Shown here: positions 13,987 to 61,082 of the stretch, piece after piece
How positions within the stretch are numbered: position 1 is the first letter of the stretch
How the letters are laid out: each line of letters opens with the position of its first letter
Source: a virus
Reading direction: 5' to 3' (one strand)
Virus record (IMG/VR): IMGVR_UViG_3300048930_000192
Span: 67,811 to 131,810 of that record
Length of the DNA: 64,000 bases
Translations under genes and position numbers: made by a program
Notes under the pieces: model-generated
Told to the model about the DNA's origin: nothing
The model's database searches: none
The model's input: only the letters and a program-made list of their open reading frames with translations

Positions 13987-14014
13987 TTGACTCTACGCGC
14001 GACGCGCATACACT
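13987..14014 (+). promoter_or_regulatory. First rightward early promoter (GG/CC-free)
   Basis: TTGACT-16-TACACT. Confidence 0.7.
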
Positions 14015-14084
14015 CTATGTGTCTACTACGTGTCGCGCAACTTCGTGAGACACGAAAACAATAGTAGACTTGTGAGAATCTGAC

Positions 14085-14749
14085 ATGACTTCTACGCTTC
14101 AGATCGTTGCATCGTCGCACGTCGTTCGTTTTCGTGATCAAGAGCAGCGACTGTTTTCGTACAGTCTGCACGATTCGTCTGTCAGTCTCACGCGCAACGC
14201 GCTTGCGTCGTACGCGCTCGATCGTGAAGACTCTCTCGCGCACGTGCATACGATCGATCGCGACGAATTCGAGCGCGCAAATACGCGCGTGATTCGTGAC
14301 AGTGTGTACGAAAACTACGCGCAGAATCGTCACTCGATCGAGCGCGTACGACGCAAACGTTCGCGCGTGCGACGATCGATTCGTGCTTCACTACGTTCTC
14401 GACTGTCGCGCGCTTCACTGTCAACGTCGATAACGTCAAGCGCGACAAGTGTGTGCGAATCGTGCGAAAAGTTGAATTCGACGAAGCGTACAATGCAAGC
14501 GCAGAGCACGATTTGCAGATCGCGCAAGATTGCAGACTGCAATCGATCGAGATCATGCAAATGATCGAAGATGTGCAGAAATTGCGCGCAAAGATCGCAT
14601 CGTGCATCACTCTCTTTCACAAAATGAAAGAGAGCGCAGACAAAGAGACGCGCGACAAAGCGTTTGCTGCTCTCAACGCTGCGAAAAAGCGCAAGATTCT
14701 GCTCGCAGAGATGCTCGAATCGTTGAATTGCGCAGATCTTTTCGACTAA
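14085..14749 (+). CDS. GG/CC-free early gene, apparently frameshifted (ORFs 14085-14564 and 14453-14749), unknown function
   Basis: Lies between promoter and terminator; no Gly, Pro or Trp; helical C-terminal segment. Confidence 0.65.
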
Positions 14750-14769
14750 GATCGAAAACAGAACAAAAC

Positions 14770-14803
14770 ACGAACGAAGCGCTAACGTGCTTCGTTCGTC
14801 TTT
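14770..14803 (+). terminator. Intrinsic terminator built without GG/CC
   Basis: ACGAACGAAGC-GCTAACGT-GCTTCGTTCGT followed by CTTT. Confidence 0.75.
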
Positions 14804-15033
14804 CTCACAAAGCGCCGATTGCCAGTGCTTGTTGCGCTGGCTTTCGTCGTTTTTCGGTCGGATCATAACATCGCGTTCGCCATTGTATGCATGGTGGTAT
14901 CAAAAGTCAAGTAAAAAATAAAATAATATTATACGGTGGTGGCGGACGCGAGGTTAGTAACGGCTAACTAACAACCATCTGGGATACCGTATGTTAGTGA
15001 ATACTAATGTGTGTCAAAATCAAGTCTACGTGC

Positions 15034-15062
15034 TTGACATTCGCACGTTTACGCGCTATACT
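15034..15062 (+). promoter_or_regulatory. Early promoter (GG/CC-free)
   Basis: TTGACA-17-TATACT inside a 140-bp GG/CC-free stretch. Confidence 0.85.
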
Positions 15063-15141
15063 TATGTGTCACACGAGAGAATATTAGACGTGAGTGTTTC
15101 ACGAAAAGTAAACTCTCAAAACAAGTTTGGAGTATCTGACA

Positions 15142-15723
15142 ATGACGACCGCCAATGCTCTGCCGTTTGCCCCCGTCACCCCCGGGGCGCCCAAGACCGC
15201 CAAGCCCGCTGCCCCGAGTGGCGTGACCTACGGGGACAAGATCAATGCTGCCTTCGCGCTTGAGATTGCCCGCACCGTGGGCTTCGACCCGTTCGACGTC
15301 GCCGCTCGCCCGACCTACTTCACCCGCCCGCAGATGTTCCGCATCGCGCTCGAAAACGGGGCCAAGTGGTTTCTCGACTACTACCGCAAGCAAAAGAGTG
15401 GCAAGGGCCTGGGCAAGCTGATCGCGCAGACGGGGCAAGACTGGTACACCCCCGAATTGTTCAGCGACCCCAAGTTCTACTCCCGCTTTGGCGTCAAGCT
15501 GGGCAAGCCGAATCATGTGAGCAACAAGCACACCAAGAATGGCGTCTGCGTCGACCCGACCCGCCCGTGCCTGCCCAACGGGACCAAATGCTACGACGCC
15601 GTCGTGCTCTGGGAATCGCTTGACCGCGTGCGTGAAAAGATGGGCGAAGTTCACTACCTCGCCATGTGCGACCGCAAGCCGTTCGATGCCGCGACCGACG
15701 AAGAAACCGAAGATTCCGAGTAA
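15142..15723 (+). CDS. Early protein, paralog family A copy 1
   Basis: GGAG RBS; motifs shared with ORFs at 17157 and 42287. Confidence 0.85.
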   Translation: MTTANALPFAPVTPGAPKTAKPAAPSGVTYGDKINAAFALEIARTVGFDPFDVAARPTYFTRPQMFRIALENGAKWFLDYYRKQKSGKGLGKLIAQTGQDWYTPELFSDPKFYSRFGVKLGKPNHVSNKHTKNGVCVDPTRPCLPNGTKCYDAVVLWESLDRVREKMGEVHYLAMCDRKPFDAATDEETEDSE

Positions 15724-15754
15724 ACCCATCGTCACGACAATCTGAGATAGACCC

Positions 15755-15785
15755 AAGGGGCTGGATCAATCCAGCCCCTTGTTTC
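15755..15785 (+). terminator. Intrinsic terminator
   Basis: AAGGGGCTGGAT-CA-ATCCAGCCCCTT followed by GTTT. Confidence 0.8.
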
Positions 15786-15942
15786 GGTACATTATCCCAA
15801 ACATCGCGTCCGGCATTATAGGGGTGTGGTATGATGGTGTCAAGTGCATTAGTGAAAATTAATGTTACCGTATGGCGGACACGAGGTTAGTAAGTACTTA
15901 CTAACAGATATCTGAGATAATAAAATAAAATGCACTATACAC

Positions 15943-15971
15943 TTGACATCGACTAGGTAACATGCTATACT
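15943..15971 (+). promoter_or_regulatory. Early promoter
   Basis: TTGACA-17-TATACT, single GG at positions 14-15. Confidence 0.85.
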
Positions 15972-16010
15972 TATGTGTCGAGTGGATCATCTATCACAAA
16001 GGGGCTCAAA

Positions 16011-16358
16011 ATGAGCAATTGCATCCAGCCGCGTGGCAATTTCTGTCAGGGTGTCATCTTGGATCCTTCCATGTTCACTGGGCTCCTTGCCGTCGAAGAT
16101 GCCGAGGGCAACAAAATCTTCCGATCCACTCGTGATGGCTGGGTCCTCAAGATGGGCAGAATAACCACATGGCGTGGGTTTCGTTGCTTTCTCTGGAACC
16201 ATGTGCAACCGTTCGTCAATCAGCCGCGCGTCAAGATCCCAACCCTGATCGCCGACGAGGCTGATGAGTTTGCCGAGGCATTCACTGCCACCGTGCACCT
16301 ATTTCCACCTGGGACCAAGAGCGCAGACGTGGCTGATTGGACCAAGATTTTCCCCTGA
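16011..16358 (+). CDS. Hypothetical early protein
   Basis: AAGGGG RBS, directly downstream of promoter. Confidence 0.7.
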   Translation: MSNCIQPRGNFCQGVILDPSMFTGLLAVEDAEGNKIFRSTRDGWVLKMGRITTWRGFRCFLWNHVQPFVNQPRVKIPTLIADEADEFAEAFTATVHLFPPGTKSADVADWTKIFP

Positions 16359-16375
16359 CCAGACCAAATGGAGAT

Positions 16376-16612
16376 ATGACCATGACCGATAACCTCAAGA
16401 CCGTCACCCGGAACCTTCTGATGTCTGCCCTCATGTGTGATGAGGGTGTGACCAAAGAAGTGTTCGACCGCCTTCTGGAACTCGCCGAAGAGGTGTTTGG
16501 CACGCCGGGTGCTCATGTGCTCGCGATGTACGTGGATGCCACCGATGATTGTTTCTATGTCGCGGAACACAAGGTGTCTGCCTTCATGATCGACGTGGCT
16601 AATCTGATCTGA
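16376..16612 (+). CDS. Hypothetical early protein
   Basis: GGAG RBS; leader sequence duplicated before 16633. Confidence 0.7.
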   Translation: MTMTDNLKTVTRNLLMSALMCDEGVTKEVFDRLLELAEEVFGTPGAHVLAMYVDATDDCFYVAEHKVSAFMIDVANLI

Positions 16613-16632
16613 TCACCAGACCCAATGGAGAT

Positions 16633-16824
16633 ATGACCATGACCAAGATCATTGTGACCGTGACCGACAACGAGAACCCAGAGTGTGAGCCTGCTACCTA
16701 TGAGGCGCTCGTGGAAACCGGACTTTCTCCTGAAACCCAGGAAATGATCGTTCGTGGGATCCTTTTCGCCCATTCCTGGGCAGATTCTGCTGGCATCGAC
16801 TATACCTGGTCCTACGACGGATAA
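16633..16824 (+). CDS. Hypothetical early protein
   Basis: GGAG RBS, followed by terminator. Confidence 0.7.
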   Translation: MTMTKIIVTVTDNENPECEPATYEALVETGLSPETQEMIVRGILFAHSWADSAGIDYTWSYDG

Positions 16825-16840
16825 CCCGACCTTTCAAATG

Positions 16841-16897
16841 CGCCGATAGAACCGTGAATGGTGTGTTGCCATTCACGGTTCTATCGGCGTGTTTTTA
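16841..16897 (+). terminator. Long-stem terminator
   Basis: CGCCGATAGAACCGTGAATGG / CCATTCACGGTTCTATCGGCG followed by TGTTTTT. Confidence 0.8.
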
Positions 16898-17156
16898 GGC
16901 TCATCCGTAAACCTCGTGTCCGGCATTATAGTATATAGGTAGTGTAAAGTCAAGTATGGTATGTAAAATTGATGTTACCATGATGGCGGACGCGATGTTA
17001 GTACTTACTAACTAACCTGTATCTGAGATAATCACAAAAAGAGCGATATACACTTGACGTCTTCTAGCCTACGCGCTATCATTCACTGTCAACTGCAACT
17101 GTCGCGCGTCGCGTCGATCGCAAGTTGAAAATTACCCACGAAAGGGGTAAAGTATC

Positions 17157-17834
17157 ATGACCGAGAATAACAACGCCGTTGCCACCACTCCTGCCACCGC
17201 CGCCAAGAAGGGCCGCAAGCCCAAGAATGCCGCTGCCTTGCCTGATGTGCCGCCTGCCCCTGTCGCGCCTGGCGCCGCGACGCCCGAGACCCCGATCAGC
17301 AAGCCCGCCAACGTGTCGCGTCGTGACCGTACCAATGCGGGATTCGTGCTCGACCTGTGCATGATCACTGGCACTGACCCGACCGACATCGCCAATCGCC
17401 CGCAGTATATGACCCGCCCGCAGATGGAAGCCGTTGCCATCTCGAATCGTGAGCCGTGGTACGTGAATATGTGGAACAAGCAGAAGACCACCAAGCACCG
17501 CGACAAGACCATCGCCAAGACGCATGCCAACTGGTTCGACGAAGCCATGCTCGTCGATGGCAAGAAGTTCAGCCGATTCGGGATCGTGTGTGGCAAGCCG
17601 GGCCACGTGAGTTATGCCACTGTTCATGCCGGGGTGATGGTCGACCCCAAGGGCCCGACCCTGCCCGACGGGACCAAGCAGTACGACATCACCCAACTCT
17701 GGGATTCTCTCGACCGAGTGATCGCTGCCTACCCCGCGGGGACCTATGCCGAACTGAGCCAGCGCAAGCCCGTTGTCGCTGATGACTCGACCGATGAGTC
17801 TGACACCGAGACCAACGACGAGACCGCCGACTAA
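17157..17834 (+). CDS. Early protein, paralog family A copy 2
   Basis: NAGFVLDL..RPQYMTRPQM..FSRFGI..GKP..GVMVDP..LPDGTKQYD..LWDSLDRV. Confidence 0.85.
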   Translation: MTENNNAVATTPATAAKKGRKPKNAAALPDVPPAPVAPGAATPETPISKPANVSRRDRTNAGFVLDLCMITGTDPTDIANRPQYMTRPQMEAVAISNREPWYVNMWNKQKTTKHRDKTIAKTHANWFDEAMLVDGKKFSRFGIVCGKPGHVSYATVHAGVMVDPKGPTLPDGTKQYDITQLWDSLDRVIAAYPAGTYAELSQRKPVVADDSTDESDTETNDETAD

Positions 17835-17864
17835 ACCCGACAACCCGACATCCTGAATCACCAC

Positions 17865-17893
17865 GAGGGGCTGGATCGATCCAGCCCCTCTTT
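17865..17893 (+). terminator. Intrinsic terminator (near copy of 15755)
   Basis: GAGGGGCTGGAT-CG-ATCCAGCCCCTC followed by TTT. Confidence 0.8.
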
Positions 17894-18102
17894 CGGGTAC
17901 ATATACTAACCTCGTGTCCGGCATTATAGTATATAGGTAGTGTAAAGTCAAGTATGGTATGTAAAATTGATGTTACCATGATGGCGGACACGAGGTCTAT
18001 GGTTACCGATAAAATAATCGTGTGTGTAGACTTGACATCATGTTGCCATAACGCTAGAATAACTGTCGCGCATTGTCTCTCACATACACTGGAGATCGCC
18101 GC

Positions 18103-18324
18103 ATGGGCTACCGTGATCCTCGCCGTTTCGTGATTGCCGTCACCAACGTCAATGGCCGCAAGGACTACTATGCGGGTAGCCGTGATGGCCAACCCACATG
18201 GTCGAATGACCTGATCGACGCCTTCCAGTTTCGTGGCGAAACGGAACTGGATGCTGCAATCCTGCTCGCCAAGAAGCTTGGTGCCAGGGTCTATCAGCGT
18301 GGCGTGATGGTCGAGTGTTGGTAA
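18103..18324 (+). CDS. Hypothetical early protein
   Basis: GGAG RBS after promoter 18032. Confidence 0.7.
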   Translation: MGYRDPRRFVIAVTNVNGRKDYYAGSRDGQPTWSNDLIDAFQFRGETELDAAILLAKKLGARVYQRGVMVECW

Positions 18325-18366
18325 GCAATTTCATCCATCTCACGCAACCACTCAAGGAGTATCATC

Positions 18367-18591
18367 ATGGCTACCGTAAAGTCGGACCTGACCGCCGCCC
18401 GTAGGTACCTGATCGAGGCCTATAAGGCTATCAAAGATGCCAGAACCCACTGTGATGGTGTCGTGGATGTTGAAGGCATCCACTACCATGATATCACCAA
18501 AATCATGGACCAAGTCGATACCGTCGCTCGGATTTGCAAGGTCGAGCTGGATCGTCTGGATAAGGGTATTTTGACGTCCAAGGAATCCTGA
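18367..18591 (+). CDS. Hypothetical early protein
   Basis: AAGGAG RBS. Confidence 0.7.
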   Translation: MATVKSDLTAARRYLIEAYKAIKDARTHCDGVVDVEGIHYHDITKIMDQVDTVARICKVELDRLDKGILTSKES

Positions 18592-19053
18592 TATTTTCCG
18601 CTGTTTTCCGTAATTGTCGTCAAAAATCACGAAAAAACTGCATTTGGACAGCCAGGATGCAGTTTATTTTGATGGATTTACGCTCCAAAAAAACTGCATT
18701 TGGACAGCCAGGATGCAGTTTTTCACGAAAACACGTGTTTTTTGCATTTACCCCTGCTCCGCTACAGGCCAGCCCTTACCAAACATCAAAAAACTCGCGT
18801 CCTTTTGGAAATACGTGGCAATAGGTCTATAATTTTACCTCGTGTTCGGCATGTTATGTGTATGGTGTATGATAGTCAAGTATGGTCTAAAATATTAATG
18901 TTACCAATTGATGTATAATGGTAGCGCCAATGGTGGCGAACACGAGGTATGCCATTGGTATAATATATTCGTGTGCGTACACTTGACTATGATATGCCAA
19001 TCGTCTAAAATAACTGTCGCGCATTCTCTCACACGATCATTGGAGTATCCACA

Positions 19054-19320
19054 ATGACAGAGCAAGACTTCAACCAGTTGCCAGACCACATCAAGAATGC
19101 ACTCAAGGAAGCCAACATCGTGGCCATGTGCACCCACCACCGATTGAACACCGACAATAGTGGTGTGATGGGCACCACCGAAGTCCATGTTGATGCCGGT
19201 TGCTATATGCACAACACGGAACTCAAAAAGTTGGTACAATGCAATGGTTTCGTGAAAATCTGCCCGTACTATATTGGCACAACGCCATCATTGAAACTGG
19301 TCTTTTGGACCGTGGTATAA
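19054..19320 (+). CDS. Hypothetical early protein
   Basis: GGAG RBS after promoter 18983. Confidence 0.7.
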   Translation: MTEQDFNQLPDHIKNALKEANIVAMCTHHRLNTDNSGVMGTTEVHVDAGCYMHNTELKKLVQCNGFVKICPYYIGTTPSLKLVFWTVV

Positions 19321-19335
19321 AGGAAACCACCGAAA

Positions 19336-19593
19336 ATGAGCACCACCATCACTCGGCCAATGGTATGGGACGTCTATTACCACGACGACGACACCATCAC
19401 GATGGTAATGGGTATTACCAGTGATAATCGGGTCCATCTGCGGTCGATCAAAAAGTTGACGGATTACGACAACCACTTCGGTTACCATGGGTTCGACGAC
19501 GGTGGCCTCATGTCGGTCACCATGGATGAATTCCTACGAGCACTTTCACAGTCCATCATCATCAAGGTCATCAATTTGCAACTGCCATTGTGA
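19336..19593 (+). CDS. Hypothetical protein
   Basis: AAGGA RBS. Confidence 0.65.
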   Translation: MSTTITRPMVWDVYYHDDDTITMVMGITSDNRVHLRSIKKLTDYDNHFGYHGFDDGGLMSVTMDEFLRALSQSIIIKVINLQLPL

Positions 19594-19989
19594 TTTTCAT
19601 GGATTTTCACCATTTTTTTAACATATATAGGCTCTTTTTAGTTTATCCACGGTCCCTATAATGTTAGATTTTTCGTGGTTTCTACGATTTTTGTAGAAAG
19701 GGTAAATGGTATATGATGCAGATTATTGATTGCCATGGCAATCCAGTTGTCAATGGTGATATTGTACAATCACATAGCGGTAAGAAATATACAGCCATGT
19801 TCACTGATGGTGGCATTGTTTTAGAACAATCATCTACATGGTTGTATAATCCATCTAAGGGCACAGGATCAAAGCAATACGTTTCTTCTTCCTATCATCC
19901 GATCACCATTTCATTTGAAAACTTCCCCAATACTCAATGGCATAAGGTATAATCAATTTTTTGAAATAGAAAGGGCAAATGGTCCACAC

Positions 19990-20400
19990 ATGAGCATTAT
20001 TAAACTGACCGTCAACGGCGCCACCATCACAATCGACCAAACTGCTGATGGTGATACCACCATTGGTGTTAATACACAAGGGCCTACAGTCAAAACTGAG
20101 CCCGACGGTACTCATGCTATCCCAATTGTTGACGGCGGTTACTATACACCCCCTGCACAAACTGATTCAGTTGGTCCGGCATTCAGCCCTGAGCAACTAG
20201 GCAAATTGCGGGAAGTTATTCGAGCAATTGCATACGGTATCATCTATCTTGGTCCTAGTGATGGTTCAGTCGAGGACCGGCTTCGGCGCGACCGTAAACT
20301 TCAAGAGAAGTACCATCTAGAAAAGGATGCCTTAAATTGCCTGTGCAGTTTGGTTGGTGATACTTTTTATTGTGAGACCCTTAAGGATTTTAAGATTTAA
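19990..20400 (+). CDS. Hypothetical protein
   Basis: ORF in operon; start uncertain. Confidence 0.6.
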   Translation: MSIIKLTVNGATITIDQTADGDTTIGVNTQGPTVKTEPDGTHAIPIVDGGYYTPPAQTDSVGPAFSPEQLGKLREVIRAIAYGIIYLGPSDGSVEDRLRRDRKLQEKYHLEKDALNCLCSLVGDTFYCETLKDFKI

Positions 20401-20412
20401 AGGAGATTTCAT

Positions 20413-20835
20413 TTGAATACTGGAAATGTTCCGTCGGGTGATCTAGCAGGCGAATCAGCCAAGATTCTTGAATGGCTACGGTCTAGTACCCAATCGGCTG
20501 GTGATTTTGCCATTACACAGGCACCGTTGGCTGCTCAGGAATTCATTCGATGGGAAATCGTTGGTCATGGCATCACGGCAGGTTTGTATCTTATCTGTGG
20601 TATCGCCATGTTGATATGTGGCATACTTGGCCTCAGGTATTTAATGAGCGACAAAATGAATTGGGAAAAAGGCCCAAACGGCGGTTTCGCCGTGTCTGCG
20701 GTCGGTTGTATTCTTGGTTTCGCTGCGATGGTTGGTGTGTTGCCATCTGGCATCAGCGAGGCAAAGCAGTCGATCAAGGCATACGTTGCACCGCGGGTAG
20801 TGATTATTGAGAAAATCAGCGACCTGGTCCGATAA
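20413..20835 (+). CDS. Membrane protein (2 TM)
   Basis: AAGGAG RBS, TTG start, two hydrophobic segments. Confidence 0.7.
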   Translation: MNTGNVPSGDLAGESAKILEWLRSSTQSAGDFAITQAPLAAQEFIRWEIVGHGITAGLYLICGIAMLICGILGLRYLMSDKMNWEKGPNGGFAVSAVGCILGFAAMVGVLPSGISEAKQSIKAYVAPRVVIIEKISDLVR

Positions 20836-20845
20836 CTTGTTTTTT

Positions 20846-20972
20846 GCTCGGGTATCGTGGATATGGCTCACGCACGCCCTAACCGGCGTGAAGGGGTTGG
20901 CCCCCTGCGGGCGAAAGCCTTAATGACGGTTCGAATCCGTTGGTATAGTCGGTTCGAATCCGACCCCGAGCG
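20846..20972 (+). ncRNA. tRNA-like RNA with two T-loop arms
   Basis: GCTCGGG/CCCGAGC acceptor stem, GTCGG-TTCGAAT-CCGAC T arm, second ACGG-TTCGAAT-CCGT arm, 127 nt. Confidence 0.7.
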
Positions 20973-21290
20973 TTTTGACCCCTGTTTATAGATGGAATAT
21001 GGCATATGAAAAGAGAAGATCTCCTAGCTTTACTTGTTAATCGGTTATCGTCTGATTTTATTATTACTGATGTTGGTCACGGTTGGTCTAATAAGGTGAT
21101 AACAGTTAAATCTGGCACCAATCAAGTAAACCTATGGGTCGATGAAACTGGTATACGCATTGTGTGTATGTGCCCAAACCCGAAAGAATCTGGTGGATGT
21201 AATAAAGTTGTTTTACCAGAAAATGTAATCGACACCATTATTTCTCTTAAAGGGCATAAATGCATGCCTTGGGGTGGGTGATTTGTATAT

Positions 21291-21503
21291 ATGACTGATA
21301 CTAACCAACAGCCAAATAACAGGGCATTAACTCTTGAATCTATTAATAGGTCAGGATTATACACCTATTATGACGGTTGGCTAGAATATTTTGAAGGTAC
21401 GCGGTGTACCATGCTTTTAACTGCCATTGGATCATACAGAAAGCATGGCCTCAATTCTTTTGTTGACAGATCCGGTCTACCCCAACAGGAATTCCAAATA
21501 TGA
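21291..21503 (+). CDS. YxG-GxY-DxTG mini-protein family member
   Basis: YYDGW..IGSY..VDRSGL. Confidence 0.7.
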   Translation: MTDTNQQPNNRALTLESINRSGLYTYYDGWLEYFEGTRCTMLLTAIGSYRKHGLNSFVDRSGLPQQEFQI

Positions 21504-21848
21504 CCAGATACACAAAGATAGTTGACACCATCGGCAATCCGATGTGTTTGTGTGCTTATATCGACCAGCACCAATTTTGCTTCTATCACAATACTGCATG
21601 CACCATCGGCCCATTCTATTACCCAGCGGAAAACAGGCTTAGCACAGAAATTGACATTGGCCTAGCCGAATACACAGACCTTTTGATTGAAATATTACAA
21701 TCAGCCAAGGCGGCCAAACTGTAATTTTATTCGGCATCAAATTTCTTTAACGACAGTCTTGACAGTGATTTGCCATACGTCTACAATCACATGAGTGGGG
21801 CGATTCTTGTATGATTCTCACTCACCCCCCCTTATGGAGTACCTTGAA

Positions 21849-22157
21849 ATGACAACCACTCAACGCAAGGTTTGGACTCGTGACGAAATCAAGGCTCAGA
21901 TCCTCACCGATGATCGTTGGGTCGAACGTGCCATCGTGGCCATCTACAACAAGCAAACCAGTCACGAACAGGCAATCGGATCGACCACGGTCCATAACGG
22001 TGTTGGCTTTGCTCACTGTCACGCCAATCTTGGATCCTATTATGCCCGTTGGATCCAGAGTGGCAAGATGCTCAGTGGCCATCATGTGGCCAAAGCTCGC
22101 AAGATTGCCCTTCGATACGTCGGGCAACTGGCCAAGATCGCAAACGGTGAGATCTAA
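21849..22157 (+). CDS. Conserved-looking phage hypothetical protein
   Basis: GGAG RBS; RAIVAIY.KQT..EQ..T..HNGVGF pattern. Confidence 0.75.
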   Translation: MTTTQRKVWTRDEIKAQILTDDRWVERAIVAIYNKQTSHEQAIGSTTVHNGVGFAHCHANLGSYYARWIQSGKMLSGHHVAKARKIALRYVGQLAKIANGEI

Positions 22158-22529
22158 AAGGAGATACACGATGACGGCGAATTGGGATAAGCTGTGGGCG
22201 GCTGTGGCCGTCGCGTCGTTCATGGCGATGTGGGCACTGCCCTTGATGCTAGTGTTGTTAGCATGGGCGCTGCGCATGGAGTCGATTCGCGACCAGGATC
22301 GAGATTCGCTGGTCCGCGAATCGAACGGTCTATTGCGCGGAGCAGCATATGCGCTCATGGCCCTGTTGGTACTGATAGTGTTGCACATACTTTATGGAAA
22401 CTAGATATAGCCTGCCGCACTAATATTTTAACGTTATAGCTTGACAGTGAGTTGCCGTACGTCTACAATTGATTGGCGTTCGATGCACAAATGAATTTTC
22501 CGCCTCTCACTCACAAAGGAATCAGCACC

Positions 22530-22889
22530 ATGACCATCACCACTCACAATGATCTGATCGCACGGCTCAAGGCCAACTACCCCGACGAATCGTTGGACGG
22601 TGAGTTTCTTGCGCCGGGTGTTGCTTTGGCCAACAAGCTCATTAGCTGCCATACTGTGGCCGACAACTACGAATCTTCGACCACGATCTTTGCCTTTAAT
22701 CCCGAAACCACTGATGCAGAGATTCGTGACATTGCCAAGATGTGCCACTTTGATCCAGATGGATCCAGTTGCAGGTGCAGTCACGATTGCTGTGGCCACT
22801 GGTTTCATGGCGCCATCCGAATCGTTGATAACACCAGTCACCCTGCGTTTTTTCGGTTCGCCTATATCTATGGGCACAGAAATGTCTAA
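22530..22889 (+). CDS. Hypothetical protein with C.CSHDCCGHW motif
   Basis: AAGGA RBS after promoter 22441. Confidence 0.7.
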   Translation: MTITTHNDLIARLKANYPDESLDGEFLAPGVALANKLISCHTVADNYESSTTIFAFNPETTDAEIRDIAKMCHFDPDGSSCRCSHDCCGHWFHGAIRIVDNTSHPAFFRFAYIYGHRNV

Positions 22890-23341
22890 TACAGCAACTC
22901 GCGCAATCAATCCCGAGTCAATTACACACACCGTTGGTGATGTGGGCATCTTTATGGCCACCTACGACGGGAGTGTGCGTATGCGGAACGATCATGGCTC
23001 ATATTATACCTATCTCACTCTTTATGCGGTAACTGATTTCAATATGGCCGGTTCATATCGTCCAAGTCATCGAAGCTTTGTGACCGACGACGGAGAAATC
23101 CTAAATGATTTCTAATACAGCCACTCGCGCAATCAATCCCGACTCAATTGCACGCACCATTGGTGATGTGGGCATCTTTATAGCCACATACGACGGGTAT
23201 GTGTATATGAAAACCGATCGCGGCGCATATTACAATTACATCACTCTTTATGCGGCATCTCGTTCCAGCATGGCAGGCGCATATAATCCAAAACATCGAA
23301 TCTATGTAACCGATGACGGAGAAATCCTAAATGATTTCTAA
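22882..23341 (+). CDS. Two recently duplicated mini-protein family members (22882-23115, 23105-23341)
   Basis: Near-identical tandem ORFs SNTATRAINP..ATYDG..AGxY..VTDDGEILNDF. Confidence 0.8.
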
Positions 23342-24396
23342 GAACAGGCAACAGCCAATGTTTGTTGCCAGTAACAAATCACCAACACCGTATCGTCTGA
23401 TTGATATTAGTCAGGCTCAGGCAATGGCCGGCGATACGCCGTTGCCATTGCCCGGTTGCCGAACGGCGATCAATGTTCGCAAAACTAGAACCAGAGGCTG
23501 GCTTTATCATTTACCTTCAACCGGTACTTTCTTGTTTACCACATCAAACGAACACCGTATGATTCATGGTACTACTCAAATTATCACAAAGGCACAAACG
23601 CCAAACAAATTGCCACGAGAAGAAGCTCGGTTGCCTGCATATGTTGGCGGCCATTATCGGCCGCGATGGGATGCCGACCGCGAGGTTTGACGGTGCATTA
23701 CATTTTGACGATATCACTTGACGATGACTTACCATACGTCTACAATTGATTGGCTCTCGTTGTCTTTTCAAGAAAGGTTGATACAAGCCATGAAGATCGT
23801 CAAGACGCATAATGCCAAGATGGGTATGGTATATCAACTGATTGCCATGGACCACAAGATTCCTAGTGCATGTGTATGGTCAACCAATGATGGGCAACGA
23901 GTTGCCCTTTGTCTGATGCGCAAGGATCGGCATGGTGAAATGGCAATTTCTCGCATGATGAGTTGGCGAGAAAAGATGAGTTGGATCATGTTGGTGTGTT
24001 ACGACATTGAGAACGTGGCCAAGGCGTTGGATATTAAGCCGATTAAGGTTTGATAGCCAACCATCTGAATTTTCCTCAAAAGAAAGGTATCATCACAATG
24101 ATTAGGCAATACAAGGTTTCTAGCAATGCCCCGGGCTTCGTTGAAAAGTATCTGTGGTCTAGTTTCTACGTGGCCGAATTGGTCAAGACCATCCCAGATG
24201 GCTATACGGTCGATATCGAATACGAAGATCGGCCGATCTTGTCGGGCATCATCGGCCAGATGACGTTGCCGACGATCGCAACCTTGTATCGAGCCGTTGC
24301 AGTTGATCCGACTGTGTTGCCTGTGGTGACAGACGATGAGCCGTGCCAGATCAGCGGCAACGAAGGTGCAGTTCAGGGATAATTGCTTGTAGGCAC

Positions 24397-24582
24397 ATGT
24401 GGAACCCTAAAATGGATACTAGATGGGTCAGCCGAACCTTCATTAACTACACCAGTTTCGGTGCCTCAATTACTATGATTTTTTATGATGGGCATATATC
24501 TTCTGGTAGTGTATCGCTTCGCCAAGGCGGGCAATATTATACCAATAATAAGAACTTTTCACCAACAGGAGTAGAATCATGA
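24397..24582 (+). CDS. Mini-protein family member
   Basis: FYDGHI..GGQY..FSPTGV. Confidence 0.7.
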   Translation: MWNPKMDTRWVSRTFINYTSFGASITMIFYDGHISSGSVSLRQGGQYYTNNKNFSPTGVES

Positions 24583-24938
24583 AGTATTTTGAACGGGATA
24601 GTAAATTCAATTTCGTGGACGCAAACAACGTCTTTGTAGGCTATGACTCACATCAGGATTGCTGTGAGTTGGCTAGCTGGTATTTTTCTTTCAACCCGGG
24701 TGTAATTCCAGTTAGTGATTCAGACCATATTAGTGTTGACGAACTGGATGCATATTCGTTTGACACCGGTTATTTCCGTAAAGAGTTTGAAGATGAAACT
24801 GCAATTGCGGAATTCAAGTTGGTCGCCGCAGGTCTTCCGGATATCTATTTGATTCTTCATAACACCCATAATGGTTATTATGGGCATGGCTTTAAGTGTG
24901 AAATTTCTGGCGAAGTTCTGCGTTCGGGCATTCTGTGA
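24579..24938 (+). CDS. Phage hypothetical protein (QDCCE..HNGYY type)
   Basis: HQDCCE and HNGYYGH motifs. Confidence 0.7.
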   Translation: MKYFERDSKFNFVDANNVFVGYDSHQDCCELASWYFSFNPGVIPVSDSDHISVDELDAYSFDTGYFRKEFEDETAIAEFKLVAAGLPDIYLILHNTHNGYYGHGFKCEISGEVLRSGIL

Positions 24939-25073
24939 TATGGGTGAGTGCCGAGCACGAGGTTGATGTTATAGGCAAGTGATATTTTAATGATATCACT
25001 TGACAGTGATTTGCCGTACGTCTACAATTAATCGACTGGTCTCACACGCATACTTTATATGGAGTATCACCAG

Positions 25074-25445
25074 ATGCCAATTCGCCTGTCAACTCCAACC
25101 GAATACACTCTTGACATGGGTCGGTCTGATGGGAAGTTTGCTCTCAGGGCAGACAGATGGGAGTTCGCCTTCAACTACAACGGCGAAACCATGGCTGTTC
25201 AGGTCTTGCATGATGGCATTGAGACCAGATTCAAGATGTTTCACTGGGATCTTGGCGATCGGTTTGAAGTCATCACCAAAGAAATGTTGGACCAACGGAT
25301 CCAAGACGCCATTGACCATGGCGACACTTACGATGGCAAGACGATTGAGGTCGCTGAAACTGCTGGGTATGACGCCATCATGGCAGATGTTCGCGCGCGA
25401 TGGACTGCCATTTCATATATCGTTAACCCCAGGTACGCCTATTAA
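25074..25445 (+). CDS. Hypothetical early protein
   Basis: GGAG RBS after promoter 25000. Confidence 0.7.
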   Translation: MPIRLSTPTEYTLDMGRSDGKFALRADRWEFAFNYNGETMAVQVLHDGIETRFKMFHWDLGDRFEVITKEMLDQRIQDAIDHGDTYDGKTIEVAETAGYDAIMADVRARWTAISYIVNPRYAY

Positions 25446-25459
25446 TTTGGGAGAGGTGT

Positions 25460-25651
25460 ATGATCCCGGCGAGAGAAATTGGTTACTCCTGCATGACTTA
25501 CTATATTGCGGGTAGATGGATCATGACTTTGTATTATTCCGGTGATTTTACGAGGAATGAAATCACACACACAAGTTTTTACAGGTTATTTGAAAGCGGG
25601 GAGTATTGCTACAAAAGTAAATTATTTGACTCAACTGGTGTGGGTAGATAG
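25460..25651 (+). CDS. Mini-protein family member
   Basis: YYSGDF..SGEY..FDSTGV. Confidence 0.75.
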   Translation: MIPAREIGYSCMTYYIAGRWIMTLYYSGDFTRNEITHTSFYRLFESGEYCYKSKLFDSTGVGR

Positions 25652-25736
25652 AGGCTGATTAAATTTTGCATATCGACTTGACAGTGATGTGCCGAAGTTC
25701 TATAATTTTGTACGCACTCTCTGGAGATCAAAGACG

Positions 25737-26096
25737 ATGATTAAGATCCTTTTCCTTGACGACGAAGCAGCCAGGTTTGACGTTTTGGTAAAGAATCTTG
25801 GTGATAGTGCCCAATGCCGTCATGTGAAGGACGGGTTTGAATTTCTTGAGGCTCTGTGTGATTCCAAATATGATGTTATCATGTTGGATCATGATCTTGG
25901 CCTCTGCGATTTCACTGGTGTGGATGCAGCAAAGATTCTTGCCTGCGCACCAGAGAATCTGAATGATCACCAACTGGTAGTTGTTCATAGCATGAATGTT
26001 TGCGGCGCCGACAACATGATTTCACACATGAGGAACTCGCCGCATCTTAGGATTCGCAAGATGCCTGGTGCATGGATGAAGAATTTTCTTGGATAG
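25737..26096 (+). CDS. Stand-alone receiver-like protein (cyclic-phosphate-processing receiver type)
   Basis: ILFLDDE..MLDHDLG..TG..VHSMN..GA.NM signature. Confidence 0.8.
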   Translation: MIKILFLDDEAARFDVLVKNLGDSAQCRHVKDGFEFLEALCDSKYDVIMLDHDLGLCDFTGVDAAKILACAPENLNDHQLVVVHSMNVCGADNMISHMRNSPHLRIRKMPGAWMKNFLG

Positions 26097-47750: not shown

Positions 47751-48743
47751 TTACGTCTTTTTTATATTTATTTCGTATTTTGCACACCATTTCCTAACAG
47801 CATTATCAGATACACCGTACTTTCTACCCAAAGCAAGAAATGACATTTTTTCTATTTCATCTTTTAGAATTTCTTTAGATGGCCTTGTCACTTTTCTAGA
47901 AGATTCTGCACAACACTCGGTAGAACAAAATTTACCCTTACATTTTTTAATTTTGCAAAATTCGCAACAATTTAATTCTTTCTTTGGTTTATCAAATTTA
48001 GCGAACTTATCCCAATTGGCAGAGGACGCCGTCCTAGAAACGGTGTGTTCGGGGTTCGACTCCCCGAGTTCGCATTTGTTCTTTTTAGATTTGGATTTAC
48101 AAAAAGTTTCTGTTTGGCTATGACAATTTGGACAAATTAATCTTAAATTTTCCAATCTATTATCGTATGATACGCCATTTATGTGATCCATTTGTAAAGT
48201 CAATTTATTATTATTCCACGATGATATACCACAAATATCACATTTATATTCGTGCTTAACTTGCAAAAATCTTTCTTTTACCATTGATTTACATTTTCCG
48301 TGTATCGCAAATATTTCTTCGTTGGGTGTTCTATCTTTCTTCGGGCCAAACTTTGCACCTTTGCTCCATCCCTGACCAGTAAAATGATCGATATTTATAT
48401 TATTTGTTTCTATATAATTTATCAATTTTGATTTGAAAGTCCAAGGATAGTCATTTTTGCCGCCCAATAAAATATATACTCTCCTAATAGACTTACTATT
48501 TTTTATTGCCTCTAATATGAATTCCGGTTCTATTGTATCTATGTCAATTATATTACCGTGCTTTCCGCGCATATGGCTTACGTCTATTTTATGCTTATTA
48601 ATGTAAGCATCTAAGTCTCTATACCAAGCGCCACTATATGGGTCATTTTTATTCAATTTTCGAAAAATTTCAGCCTTAGTCTTACTTTCTTTAATAATCA
48701 AATTTAGTTCTTCATTAAAATCAACAAAGTATCCGGGTTTCAT
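47751..48743 (-). CDS. HNH homing endonuclease with C-terminal HTH
   Basis: C..CG..W..LQMDHING..DNRLENLRLICPNCHSQT; LGRKYGVSDNAVRKW; GGAGG RBS before MKPGY. Confidence 0.92.
   Translation of the reverse strand: MKPGYFVDFNEELNLIIKESKTKAEIFRKLNKNDPYSGAWYRDLDAYINKHKIDVSHMRGKHGNIIDIDTIEPEFILEAIKNSKSIRRVYILLGGKNDYPWTFKSKLINYIETNNINIDHFTGQGWSKGAKFGPKKDRTPNEEIFAIHGKCKSMVKERFLQVKHEYKCDICGISSWNNNKLTLQMDHINGVSYDNRLENLRLICPNCHSQTETFCKSKSKKNKCELGESNPEHTVSRTASSANWDKFAKFDKPKKELNCCEFCKIKKCKGKFCSTECCAESSRKVTRPSKEILKDEIEKMSFLALGRKYGVSDNAVRKWCAKYEINIKKT
48001..48074 (+). tRNA. tRNA-Leu (UAG) embedded antisense in the HNH ORF
   Basis: GCGAACT/AGTTCGC; GCCGT-CCTAGAA-ACGGT; CGGGG-TTCGACT-CCCCG. Confidence 0.85.
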
Positions 48744-58136: not shown

Positions 58137-59068
58137 AATATCACGGCTCAAATTATAATTTGAGCGTTCGCTTGACTTGACTTTACCAATCTGATATAAT
58201 TATGTGTCAGATCAAATTTTGTTAGAAAGAGAACACATGGAAATCAATATTGTAGGCGCGTTTATTGACGAAATTGGCATTGAACTAAACAATATTTCTA
58301 ATATTGTTGGCCCGGAAAATGTTACTGTAGACCAGATTTACTCTACTCCCGATTTGGTTAATCCAGAATACTGGCACGATCAAATCCTGATGGAACTAAA
58401 TGGCAATCAAACTCGATTGGTTCTTGAAACCGTAGCCTCTACTAAGTATCACGGATCTAATATTCCAGGTGAAACTTTTGTTAAAACGATGTTAATGGAA
58501 TTGCAAGATTGTGATCCTAAGATGTGGGGTCAGATTATTTCTAGTAGCTATCTTAGCAAGATTTATACCGACACAGTTGGAGTATAAAGAATGTCGGAAA
58601 AATTGGATCCAGTGCAGTTGACGATTGCAACCAGCAATGTAGTTGCCAGTAAAAATGGTAGTATCTATGAAGCAATTGCAAGTGCTGCCATGCAGAGTAA
58701 GAAACAAGAGGAATTAAACAAAAAAGCAGCCGCAGAACTTATTGATAAAATACCAGAAATGTGTAGGGTTGCATCTGGCAAAGGCGAATGGTCTATTCGA
58801 GTGTGTGCCGCAGAGGGTAGTTTTTATTCTACTGGCAAGTCTCACCCAATATGCGGTGGTATATATTATGGCACACCATGTGGTTCAACCACAATGGTAT
58901 ATGATTACTGCGTGGCTATCTTTGGTAAACTAAGAACTTTCTTTACCCGTGTTGACGGCGAATACTATCTAAATGTTACATGGGCAGAAATTACAGATGA
59001 GCAATTAAAGAATTTGGATAAATCGAATGATCTACCTAACAGCTGATTCGCATTTTGGGCACTAAATC

Positions 59069-59102
59069 AACTCCTCATATAAATACAAATATATGAGGAG
59101 TT
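59069..59102 (+). promoter_or_regulatory. T4-type late promoter TATAAATA inside an RBS-sequestering hairpin
   Basis: AACTCCTCATAT-AAATACAAAT-ATATGAGGAGTT. Confidence 0.85.
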
Positions 59103-59108
59103 AAATAG

Positions 59109-59981
59109 ATGACAAGAAAGTACGAAAAAAGAATAGTAATTGACAAAATTTGTTTAAATTGTAATAAAAAATATAAAACTAAATTTGAGACACAAAAATA
59201 CTGTTGTAAAGTTTGTAAAAACCTTCATCAAAAAATAACTCAGATTGGCAGAAAATACAAACCAAAATACGGCAAAGAAAATTCTAACTACGGAAATAAA
59301 TGGTCGGAAGAACAAAAATTAAAGCAATCAGATTTGATAAAATCTAAGGTAAACGATGAATATAGATTCAAATGTGGATCTCCCAGAAGGGGTAAAAAAT
59401 TAGACAGAGAAACCATTATAAAAATGCACGGCAATAGGGAAAAATCGTCATATAGTCACCCGCACACAAAAGAATCCAAATTAAAAATAGGCATTAAAAG
59501 CAAAGAAAAATTTACACCAGAATATTTCAAAAAAATTCGATCTATAATGGAAAAAAATGGTAGTTGGGTACCTTTGTCCAAAAAAGAAGATAGATCGGTT
59601 TACTTCAAAGAATCAAACTGGAATAAAAAATTATTCGATGTTTTATATTCAAAATATAAAATATTAATAGAAACTTACGGAATATTTAATTCTACAAAAA
59701 ATAGTAGGGGTTGTGTGCGAGATCATATATTTTCCAGACAAAGCGCATTTGATTTGGGAGTTTTTCCAGAAATAGTAAGGCACATTGAAAATTGTCAAAT
59801 AATATTGCACAAAGATAATGTCAAAAAAGCATTCACTAAAAAAGACGGAATTTCATTAGAACAACTTTTTGAAAAAATAGAAAAAACTTCCCACGTATGG
59901 GAGGAACAAGAAATTTGTCTAAAATTGATAGAGGATTATAAAAATGGTAAAAGATGGATTAATAGATGGAAGGAGGACTAA
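59109..59981 (+). CDS. Putative homing endonuclease (Zn ribbon, NUMOD3-like, HNH-like C-terminus)
   Basis: C..C..KYC..C; HTKESKLKIG; RDHIFS..ENCQI..DN. Confidence 0.75.
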   Translation: MTRKYEKRIVIDKICLNCNKKYKTKFETQKYCCKVCKNLHQKITQIGRKYKPKYGKENSNYGNKWSEEQKLKQSDLIKSKVNDEYRFKCGSPRRGKKLDRETIIKMHGNREKSSYSHPHTKESKLKIGIKSKEKFTPEYFKKIRSIMEKNGSWVPLSKKEDRSVYFKESNWNKKLFDVLYSKYKILIETYGIFNSTKNSRGCVRDHIFSRQSAFDLGVFPEIVRHIENCQIILHKDNVKKAFTKKDGISLEQLFEKIEKTSHVWEEQEICLKLIEDYKNGKRWINRWKED

Positions 59982-60553
59982 TGAGTGTCGGATATGGTTA
60001 ACATCCGACACTCATTAGATGCTATTTCGGGCACTCCAACATAATCAAATATTGTAATAGACCATTCCAGAATGTAAATGAAATGGATGCACATCTAATA
60101 GACCAGATCAACAAATTGGTAAAGCCAGAAGATACACTATATCACCTTGGCGATTTTTGCTTCTGGAACAAACAAATAGATCCAAAAATTTACCGAGAAA
60201 GGATTAAGTGCAAAAACATACATTTAATCCTCGGTAATCATGATTATAAGAATAAATCCTACTACTTAAATAGCGGCTTATTCAAAAGTGTTGGTGATAT
60301 GGGCAGAATTGCATATGGCGACGGATCAGAAGTGGTGTTATGCCATTATGCAATGAGGGTATGGAATAAATCTCACCACGGTGTTGCCCATGCATATGGG
60401 CATTCTCATGGCACATTGAAAGATGACCCATGTTCTAGAAGTATGGATGTTGGCGTAGATAATATTCCTGGATATAAGCCAATTTCATATGTTGAGTTTT
60501 GGGAAATAATGAAAAGTAAAGAGTTCACGCCGATCGATCATCATGGAGCGTAA
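59944..60553 (+). CDS. Calcineurin-like metallophosphoesterase with interrupted N-terminus
   Basis: IWLTSDTH then FGHSNIIKYCNRPF in the +1 frame; HLGDF, GNHD, CHY, YGHSHG, DVGVD. Confidence 0.85.
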
Positions 60554-61082
60554 TATAATGCCAGTATCAAAATCAGATGAAGTAATACCGATTGCAGAAG
60601 TTATTGAGAATTTTATAAATTCTTTGCATCAAAGCGGTGCATCTACAGATCAAATTCTAGAAGGTGTAATTCGGGCATTTAATAGTCGTGACGGCATTTT
60701 AGTTACGTCCAATCTAGACGATAATGCTAATATGCAAGAATTGGCGTATAAAGTCGAAAGTGATTTGGTGAAAACTCACCAAGATTTGGTAAATTATTCG
60801 CGTCAAGAAATTTCTGGATAAAGGAGATATCGTAAATGGTTGATATCTATGAAGGGTTAGATCCTGGTGCAACCGTGGCACAATCGGTCAGCCATTGTTC
60901 TAATCTGCAATGGCGCCAGCACAATGGTGAAACCAAAAAGTTGGCCAATTTAACTACTACACACCTAAACAACATTTTGGCGTATAGGGCTAGGCACAAG
61001 TCTCGAAATCTGCCGGGTGGTGAACGGCGTAATGTAATGGCTATGGCAATCTGCATTGAAATTTATAGGCGAAATGGAGTTT

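Follow-up and report, generated by a model that had tools for sequence, protein, structure and literature searches.

A mobile cassette in a phage metallophosphoesterase gene probably carries a homing endonuclease and a self-immunity gap skipped by a short ribosomal hop

How can a phage enzyme be made whole when a stop codon stands in the middle of its active-site motif? The question is posed by a metallophosphoesterase gene in 64,000 nucleotides (nt) of viral DNA, here called the window (IMG/VR record IMGVR_UViG_3300048930_000192, positions 67,811 to 131,810), which end a linear virus record of 131.8 kb whose completeness is put at ~72%. A first-pass annotation, made from the letters of the window, had described the motif ..IWLTSDTH as being followed by TAG and resumed as FGHSNII.. 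after a 10-nt gap (60016-60025), and had proposed either programmed ribosomal hopping over the gap or an insertion that protects the site from the adjacent endonuclease. Each of these elements lies where it was described, and the two proposals fit together as a single system. We consider it likely that the gene carries a homing-endonuclease cassette with a self-immunity insert, and that ribosomes pass over the insert in a programmed short hop, comparable to the systems of T4 gene 60/MobA and phage phiHau3. The anatomy of the site, the mobility of the cassette and the conservation of signals throughout a family of such sites are shown below; the hop, its efficiency and the role of the gap in immunity are inferred.

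The reading frames of the window define the problem (Table 1). Frame 1, read from ATG 59944 with GAGGA 8 nt 5' of it, translates as MVKDGLIDGRRTNECRIWLTSDTH up to the CAT codon and then meets the TAG. The motifs of calcineurin-like metallophosphoesterases (PF00149/PF12850, PHROG 547) are all present and in order, with DTH in the 5' exon and with GD, GNHD and GHSH (GHxH) intact in the C-terminal part (C-part); D-x-H is joined to the remaining motifs only if the gap is skipped. The body downstream of the gap matched Pfam Metallophos (E 2.6e-5, above the cut-off for PF00149) and PHROG 547 'phosphoesterase' (E 1.8e-43), and the nearest solved chain for a homologue (L003) was 1xm7_A (E 1.7e-9). Excising exactly 60016-60025 does restore the family motif, as had been claimed, and the resulting D-x-H-x-x-H spacing is kept in 76 of the 78 uninterrupted homologues described below, the exceptions being a Q for the last H at the same spacing and a gene cut by a contig end. 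A separate start of the C-part was ruled out, there being no start codon in its frame between TAA 59999 and TTC 60026; the first ATG is at 60083. The annotation was also right about the two candidate start codons: ATG 59944 is in the SDTH frame and ATG 59981, which has a ribosome binding site, is not. The latter lies in the FGH frame and reads MSVGYG, stopping after six codons.

Table 1. Features of the interrupted metallophosphoesterase gene, by position in the window
Feature	Coordinates	Strand	Basis and remarks
Remnant of the gene's original 5' end, 12-codon mini-ORF MIYLTADSHFGH then TAA	59027..59065	+	Translation; in the relative runs in frame into the gene body
Mobile cassette, 985 nt	59062..60046	+	Present in window, absent from ~98% identical relative
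Probable homing endonuclease open reading frame (ORF), 290 codons	59109..59981	+	ORF list; GAGGAG 8 nt upstream
Replacement 5' exon, 24 codons, MVKDGLIDGRRTNECRIWLTSDTH	59944..60015	+	Sequence and translation; ATG overlaps 3' end of the endonuclease-like ORF in another frame
Shine-Dalgarno-like AGGAGG, 1 nt 5' of the stem	59971..59976	+	Sequence
Hairpin, perfect 16-bp stem (59978-59993 / 60003-60018), 9-nt loop	59978..60018	+	Inverted repeat, 100% complementary; RNA folding
Proposed take-off codon CAT (His)	60013..60015	+	CAY before a stop is demanded by the scan pattern
Coding gap, 10 nt, TAGATGCTAT	60016..60025	+	Stop TAG 60016-18; proposed landing triplet TAT 60023-25
Metallophosphoesterase main body, 175 codons and stop, from TTC 60026, FGHSNIIKYCNRPF..	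60026..60553	+	ORF and translation

The perfect stem reported by the first-pass annotation, with the take-off site in its 3' arm, was confirmed; that arm consists of the Ser-Asp-Thr-His codons and the TAG. RNA folding of 59940-60050 gave -33.7 kcal/mol against a shuffle mean of -17.45 (z-score -5.9), and none of 200 shuffles was as low. The start codons that follow the Shine-Dalgarno (SD)-like AGGAGG open just dead-end ORFs of 6 and 19 codons. In the minimum-energy fold, GGAG 59972-59975 also pairs with CUCC 60034-60037 past the resume site, enclosing the hairpin.

The first part of the answer comes from relatives that lack the interruption. Contigs from two wastewater runs, X1 and X2 (one contig each; two samples of one study), join position 59061 to position 60047, skipping 985 nt and carrying 13 other letters between. 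The flanks of this relative are ~98% identical to those of the window, the left one differing at 10-13 of 562 positions and the right one at 11-21 of 954. Read by hand, its gene is uninterrupted (..ADSHFGH-HNIL-KYCNRPF..). The absence of 59062-60046 from so close a relative means that the endonuclease-like ORF and the gap form one mobile unit; the segment is a single mobile insertion. Beyond what the annotation had seen, the cassette sits inside the gene, the original 5' end of which still stands at 59027-59065. From left to right the cassette comprises a stop codon, the 290-codon ORF, the replacement 5' exon with hairpin and gap, and seven body codons, FGHSNII; the first 21 nt of the phosphoesterase body are thus cassette-derived. 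Within 60047-60553, all eight listed differences between the window and the relatives are synonymous. Uninterrupted relatives had been named in advance as one mark of a simple pseudogene or assembly error. They do exist, in the X1 and X2 contigs, and they are also what a mobile cassette predicts (compare T4 gene 60 with T2).

Is the break peculiar to this phage? Among 80 homologous loci kept from IMG/VR, 78 are unbroken at the junction; in the other two (L020 and L055) TGAAT interrupts precisely this point. We then scanned contigs with a pattern of D-T-H codons, a T-R-R triplet, 0-30 free nt, F/Y-x-H-x-N-I and, further on, R-P, so that gaps of 3-33 nt were accepted and TGG was allowed in place of a stop. 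The pattern matched 30 stretches in viral contigs, 59 in metagenome contigs and one in genome contigs; the last is on a 7990-nt contig of an archaeal metagenome-assembled genome and yields no host information. Viral and metagenome matches with the window gave 92 locus records (some contigs having been fetched twice), which reduce to 50 unique sites and, at 85% identity, to 40 clusters; a search for the same DxH-stop-gap in homologues had been advised by the annotation. The uninterrupted form of the pattern was found in at least 118 stretches. Two further sites came from a scan with GAT for GAC in the core, and their gaps measure 8 and 14 nt. The latter (L172:3721-3783, TAGCTTAGGCTAAC) is the longest found and, by eye, has a small palindrome of its own, TTAG-G-CTAA, which recalls a take-off stem-loop.

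In the main scan there were 21 different gap strings, 4 to 10 nt long. The shortest are TAAC (four unique sites) and TGAC, followed by TGAAT (nine) and TAAAT at 5 nt and TAGCTT (two) at 6 nt. At 7 nt, TAGCTAC, TAGCTAT and TAGGTAT each occur at six unique sites and TAGTTAC at three, with TAGGTAC, TAGTTAT, TAGCCAT, TGACCAT, TGAGAAC, TGAGGAC and TGAGTAT at a single site each. The 8-nt gaps are TAGGTAAC, TAGGTTAC and TAGTTAAC, the 9-nt gap is TAGGTTTAT, and the 10-nt gap, TAGATGCTAT, was found in the window and at no other site. In a quick tree, interrupted genes were scattered among uninterrupted ones, the window being sister to L002 and L003 (Shimodaira-Hasegawa-like approximate likelihood-ratio test, SH-aLRT, 95) and L020 to L016 (99); the starred branches are compatible with a single origin of the group with 5-nt gaps. 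Megablast of 59000-60900 against phage records returned no match, and blastn of two of the ~100-nt modules that surround the gap returned weak gene-body matches and no cultured phage with the module.

The gap strings share features beyond their position. All 21 begin with TAA, TAG or TGA, and the TGG that the pattern allowed occurs in none. Twenty of the 21 end in NAY, as do the gaps at 48 of 50 unique sites (by string: TAY 10, AAY 6, CAT 2, GAC 2); the exception ends in CTT, which agrees with CAT in its first and third bases. Since the NAY triplets would encode Tyr, Asn, His or Asp, the signature is one of codon and anticodon, not of residue selection. NAY is what the tRNA-His anticodon can pair with at codon positions 2 and 3, and it fits re-pairing of that tRNA. 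The landing triplets are mostly near-cognate, agreeing with the take-off codon at those two positions and short of a full match, with an exact CAT in two strings; in the window the triplet before resumption is TAT, as the annotation had noted. Gap lengths cover all three frames (4, 7 and 10 nt; 5, 8 and 14 nt; 6 and 9 nt), and at every site skipping the gap restores the motif exactly.

The hairpin is a family trait as well. All 46 sites with at least 80 nt upstream, which were the ones tested, have a stem of 7-21 bp through the GACAC core (the Asp-Thr codons), with loops of 7-32 nt. Four or five types of base pair occur at each of three variable positions (-3, -1 and +5). At the third base of the Ser/Ala codon (position -1) the pairs are G-C (23), A-T (12), C-G (6), T-A (3) and T-G (1), and at the third base of the Thr codon G-C (21), A-T (17), G-T (5) and C-G (1). 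In one of the GAT-core sites (L171) the stem partner is, by eye, altered to match. Matched uninterrupted genes with the same GACACNCAY core have no stem of at least 7 bp in any of 99 unique cases among the matches listed, and 94 of these lack a stem altogether; in 65 other uninterrupted homologues the top stem score was 8.5, in three of the 65.

An SD-like motif lies no more than 16 nt 5' of the stem in 40 of the 46 sites. The start codons behind it lead, across sites, only into short dead-end frames, and an SD-backed ATG or GTG in the 5' arm was ruled out as the start of the enzyme (ORFs of 3-20 codons, mostly in the third frame); a single ATG, in L094, was found by hand to read into the body, and it does so without D-x-H. 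A fixed distance across the stem from the SD-like motif to the landing triplet was also tried and rejected, the summed distance being 3-15 nt in the family and 5 nt in the window. The 5' exons, 9-28 codons long, have an in-frame ATG in 43 of 46 sites and show 28 different five-residue stretches before DTH, nearly all of the hydrophobic-T-S/A type of the family. The exon is thus maintained as coding sequence. Outside the enzyme motif the exons are unalike, and no conserved extra peptide was seen in them.

What, then, moves the module? The 290-codon ORF of the window has a zinc-ribbon N-terminus and, by eye, an HNH-like DH..N..H..N stretch. It matched PHROG 23051 (E 3e-10, function unknown) and nothing in Pfam above cut-off (NUMOD3, at E 0.027, fell below it), so that neither Pfam nor PHROG gave it a named function; its Atlas neighbours carry NUMOD3/HNH, which we take as leads only. 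Its product is probably a homing endonuclease, on the grounds of its mobility, the zinc-ribbon and HNH-like motifs, and the positions of its relatives. One of these (L129) encodes a homologous endonuclease, 50% identical to that of the window, in the same place before its own hop site. Both loci have a 24-codon exon from a homologous ATG; the gaps are TAAC in one and 10 nt in the other, and the stems differ, yet both pair.

Endonuclease-like ORFs of other kinds lie upstream of the site elsewhere. Using six ORFs resembling homing endonuclease genes (HEGs) as queries (two LAGLIDADG, the window type and three HNH-like), we found an upstream match in 13 of 31 interrupted clusters with at least 800 nt upstream, 12 of them ending no more than 140 nt from the site, and in none of 62 uninterrupted loci, a contrast that is somewhat biased because the queries were taken from interrupted loci. 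Pfam placed LAGLIDADG above cut-off in L085 and L106, and HNH weakly in L170. Of the 50 unique contexts searched, just three yielded a remnant of the former 5' end. L165 and L170 repeat the layout of the window, with remnant, endonuclease and new exon in that order; their remnants use GAT ACA and their new exons GAC ACN, the version able to pair with the 5' arm. In the two largest clusters, L086 (n=16) and L092 (n=24), the queries found no endonuclease, yet the module is kept. In L157 (5246-5977) a LAGLIDADG homologue adjoins the hop site on the opposite strand, unlike in other members.

We propose the following order of events. The cassette would have inserted into the phosphoesterase gene just past the D-x-H-F-G-H codons, severing the original 12-codon 5' end and supplying a replacement exon that repeats the conserved target, split between His and Phe by 10 nt headed by TAG. 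Ribosomes would initiate at ATG 59944, decode 24 codons and pause when CAU occupies the P site and UAG the A site, whereupon peptidyl-tRNA-His would release CAU and the mRNA would slide by 10 nt. The hairpin could aid the slide by closing again behind the ribosome: the sequence just read (the last 13 nt, with the stop) makes up its 3' arm, and its 5' arm is already out; the adjacent AGGAGG may assist by pairing with 16S rRNA. The tRNA-His would re-pair on UAU 60023-25 through codon positions 2 and 3, with a G-U pair at position 1, and decoding would restart at TTC 60026, fusing ..TSDTH directly to FGHSNII.. and so completing the enzyme. If MobA and gene 60 are a guide, the gap would also, in the DNA, interrupt the endonuclease target in the cassette's own copy and render the carrier immune.

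The alternative that survives best is that the gene is dead: the cassette would have disrupted a dispensable phosphoesterase, exon and gap would be by-products of homing or of error-prone repair, and no full-length enzyme would be made. We regard this as unlikely, although the uninterrupted gene in cassette-free relatives and the lack of any RNA run listed with the stretch are both in keeping with it. The state of the gene bodies bears on both sides. C-part translations reached a stop in 65 cases, 55 of them unique; 47 of the 55 are 158-229 amino acids (aa) long, and 41 of those 47 keep GD, GNHD and GHxH. The ratio of nonsynonymous to synonymous substitution rates (dN/dS) is 0.07-0.2 in many pairs of gap-bearing genes (0.07 at dS 0.39 for L138 vs L147). 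The bodies are mosaic, however, several pairs having ~100% identical flanks around a body of 77-89% identity (e.g. L091 vs L107), and low dN/dS may for that reason partly predate the insertions; it is no proof of later selection. Further breaks also occur, in L117, which stops at 64 aa, and in L125, which has lost 1 nt. A scar would nevertheless not be expected to keep, over 40 clusters and several endonuclease families, an ATG in 43 of 46 sites and the N-terminal motif in 28 variants, nor a stop directly after His, NAY in 20 of 21 strings and a covarying hairpin that is present in 46 of 46 sites and, among the matches listed, in 0 of 99 controls. Nor would it be expected to persist in the two largest clusters, which have no endonuclease, or to retain its layout between the window and L129. 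This last comparison, of module features kept across far-diverged cassettes, appears to us a stronger argument for function than the substitution rates.

Two further observations were made on these bodies. Three pairs (L091 vs L107, L093 vs L095 and L097 vs L163) are ~100% identical on both sides and 11-49% different in the gene body, the divergence beginning at the hop site or a short way past it, as if gene conversion had acted repeatedly on the phosphoesterase locus. In five gut-metagenome phage contigs (L086, L089, L120, L146 and L159) the C-part is short, with TGA at codons ~112 and ~116, two Trp positions at which the near-identical and intact L087 and L090 have TGG (..CLTTWPGQWNG..); the gap stop of all five is TAG. 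The pattern suggests that TGA is decoded as Trp in some of these phages and is not damage.

A +1 frameshift at CAT-TAG is the next alternative, and we hold it to be quite improbable. In the window it would read CAT T AGA TGC TAT TTC and yield ..DTH-RCY-FGH.., with three extra residues, stimulated by the stop as in prfB, where a programmed +1 frameshift is favoured by an A-site stop and an SD-like element ~3 nt upstream. The +1 frame is indeed open through the gap, both stimulators have counterparts here, the 10-nt gap resembles the common TAGCTAT plus 3 nt with the frame kept, and the variable positions of the 7-nt gaps are the wobble positions of the +1 frame. Frameshifting is all the same a poor fit, since gaps of 4-14 nt in all three frames would need +1, +2 or -1 shifts and stop readthrough at one site, and no one mechanism could serve them all. 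Frameshift and readthrough alike are disfavoured because they would put 1-3 residues into a spacing that the homologues keep. Moreover, a CAT T shift gives AUU, which is not cognate for tRNA-His and offers no re-pairing; there is no slippery P-site codon as in prfB; AGGAGG lies 36 nt before CAT, as against 3 nt; and the residues before Phe (Tyr, Asn, His or Asp) are alike just in codon positions 2 and 3.

That the 10 nt or the palindrome were made by metagenome assembly or sequencing is hardly credible: no independent read set was found over 59062-60046 and the 10-nt string is unique, but the window site has every family feature seen in unrelated assemblies (a stop after His, TAT before TTC, the GACAC stem, AGGAGG) and a homologous cassette in L129. 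Intron, editing and transcriptional slippage were set aside by reasoning, as varied gaps of 4-14 nt fit none of them.

Several points weigh against the proposed hop. UAU is merely near-cognate for tRNA-His, and gene 60 has a matched pair. D-T-H, T-R-R and F/Y-x-H were imposed by the scan pattern and are not independent findings, and the endonuclease queries carry the bias noted above. For the endonuclease fold and activity of the 290-codon ORF, its sequence offers motifs seen by eye and no Pfam match above cut-off. Among public read runs, none was found to cover 59088-60011 apart from short unrelated pieces, and the top runs hold the cassette-free relative; given this and the unique 10-nt string, the window gap is without assembly-independent confirmation. 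No RNA run holding the window stretch was listed. The broken members and mosaic bodies described above count on the same side, as do the several pairs whose ~100-nt hop module has changed far less than the sequence on either side of it, and the enzyme would seem dispensable enough for mobile DNA to hit.

How does a hop of this kind compare with those already described? To our knowledge, natural programmed bypassing is confined to very few cases, namely T4 gene 60 and its relatives, yeast mitochondria and the phiHau3 proposal. The 50-nt bypass of T4 gene 60 was reportedly the subject of work by Huang in 1988 and Bonocora in 2011. Our full-text literature search found no paper describing the phosphoesterase gap site; the supplementary tables of recoding papers, which lay outside the search, may list cases. 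The MobA element is described as combining a homologous replacement region with a bypass, the gap breaking its own endonuclease target (bioRxiv 10.1101/2022.08.31.505936). For gene 60, pairing of the mRNA behind the ribosome at a 5' stem-loop is proposed to drive forward movement (bioRxiv 10.1101/2024.12.09.627546).

The family resembles gene 60/MobA in several respects: an endonuclease travels together with a coding gap as a single mobile element lodged inside a conserved gene; a homologous region that the cassette supplies, gap included, takes the place of a few tens of deleted target nt; close (near-identical) relatives without the element exist; and the endonuclease may be replaced by other families or lost with the gap retained. 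Gene 60 also shares the stop immediately after the take-off codon, and the forward movement proposed for it likewise relies on mRNA pairing behind the ribosome. The differences are as clear. Gaps here are 4-14 nt against 50, and landing is near-cognate (NAY for CAY) against GGA/GGA. A stem-loop within the gap of the gene 60 type was not found, gaps of 4-10 nt being too short for one; a single hairpin, which includes the take-off codon, lies 5' of the gap. No conserved nascent-peptide sequence was seen, the exons of the window and L129 sharing little. Upstream there is a 12-codon remnant in place of a working subunit, the host gene encodes a metallophosphoesterase, and at least three kinds of endonuclease, mostly LAGLIDADG, are involved.

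In its signals the closest system is that of the Streptomyces phage phiHau3, whose large terminase gene is described as having two 10-nt coding gaps with a 5' stem-loop and flanking SD proposed as stimulators, a junction peptide detected by mass spectrometry in E. coli, and such gaps in 3 of 100 terminase genes studied (PMC10732093). That peptide makes a short programmed bypass feasible. Common to both are short gaps (7-10 nt), placed at a strongly conserved junction into which a frameshift would bring extra residues, and, with a gap of ~10 nt, a 5' stem-loop, a flanking SD-like sequence and a proposed landing codon. The trigger there is described as a rare UUA in the A site, tied to the host bldA tRNA, as opposed to a stop in all 50 unique sites here; the available text mentions no link to an endonuclease; and the 3 of 100 terminase genes contrast with 40 clusters from many habitats. 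A more general likeness is to the low-level 'stop-hopping' of peptidyl-tRNA that Weiss et al. in 1987, and related work, are said to have seen in engineered E. coli constructs, inefficiently and without dedicated stimulators. There too peptidyl-tRNA leaves a codon beside a stop and re-pairs a few nt downstream, whereas here the genes are natural and have a conserved hairpin and SD-like motif.

Elsewhere in the window, a weak tblastn match (48102-48320, minus strand; 32-36% over 77 aa) to the HNH endonucleases flanking the phosphoesterase gene of L055 may be another endonuclease gene of the phage. Ten tRNA genes (31328-62018) comprise Met x2, Lys, Leu x2, Cys, Ile, Glu, Gln and Ser, and neither tRNA-His nor a suppressor tRNA is among them. 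G+C is 0.45-0.54 in 14001-26000, as compared to ~0.32-0.40 in the prior 14 kb and 0.34-0.48 elsewhere in the window.

The family offers 40 clusters, 21 natural gap variants, matched uninterrupted controls and a natural before-and-after pair. From these come testable rules for a short hop: take-off from His beside a stop, landing by codon positions 2 and 3 alone, a 5' hairpin that includes the take-off codon, and a flanking SD-like motif. The use of a coding gap as immunity to an endonuclease would be extended to other endonuclease families and another target gene. For annotation, gene callers will split or mis-start gap-bearing genes. More broadly, we lean, by a little, toward the view that bacterial ribosomes in many habitats routinely hop 4-14 nt by means of a portable ~100-nt module (SD-like motif, hairpin with a just-decoded 3' arm, His codon, stop and near-cognate NAY landing triplet), which several unrelated HEG families would use as a cost-free self-immunity insert. 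If this is true, gene 60 would mark the far end of a strategy common among phages, and 'frameshifted' phage genes would in many instances be mis-annotated.

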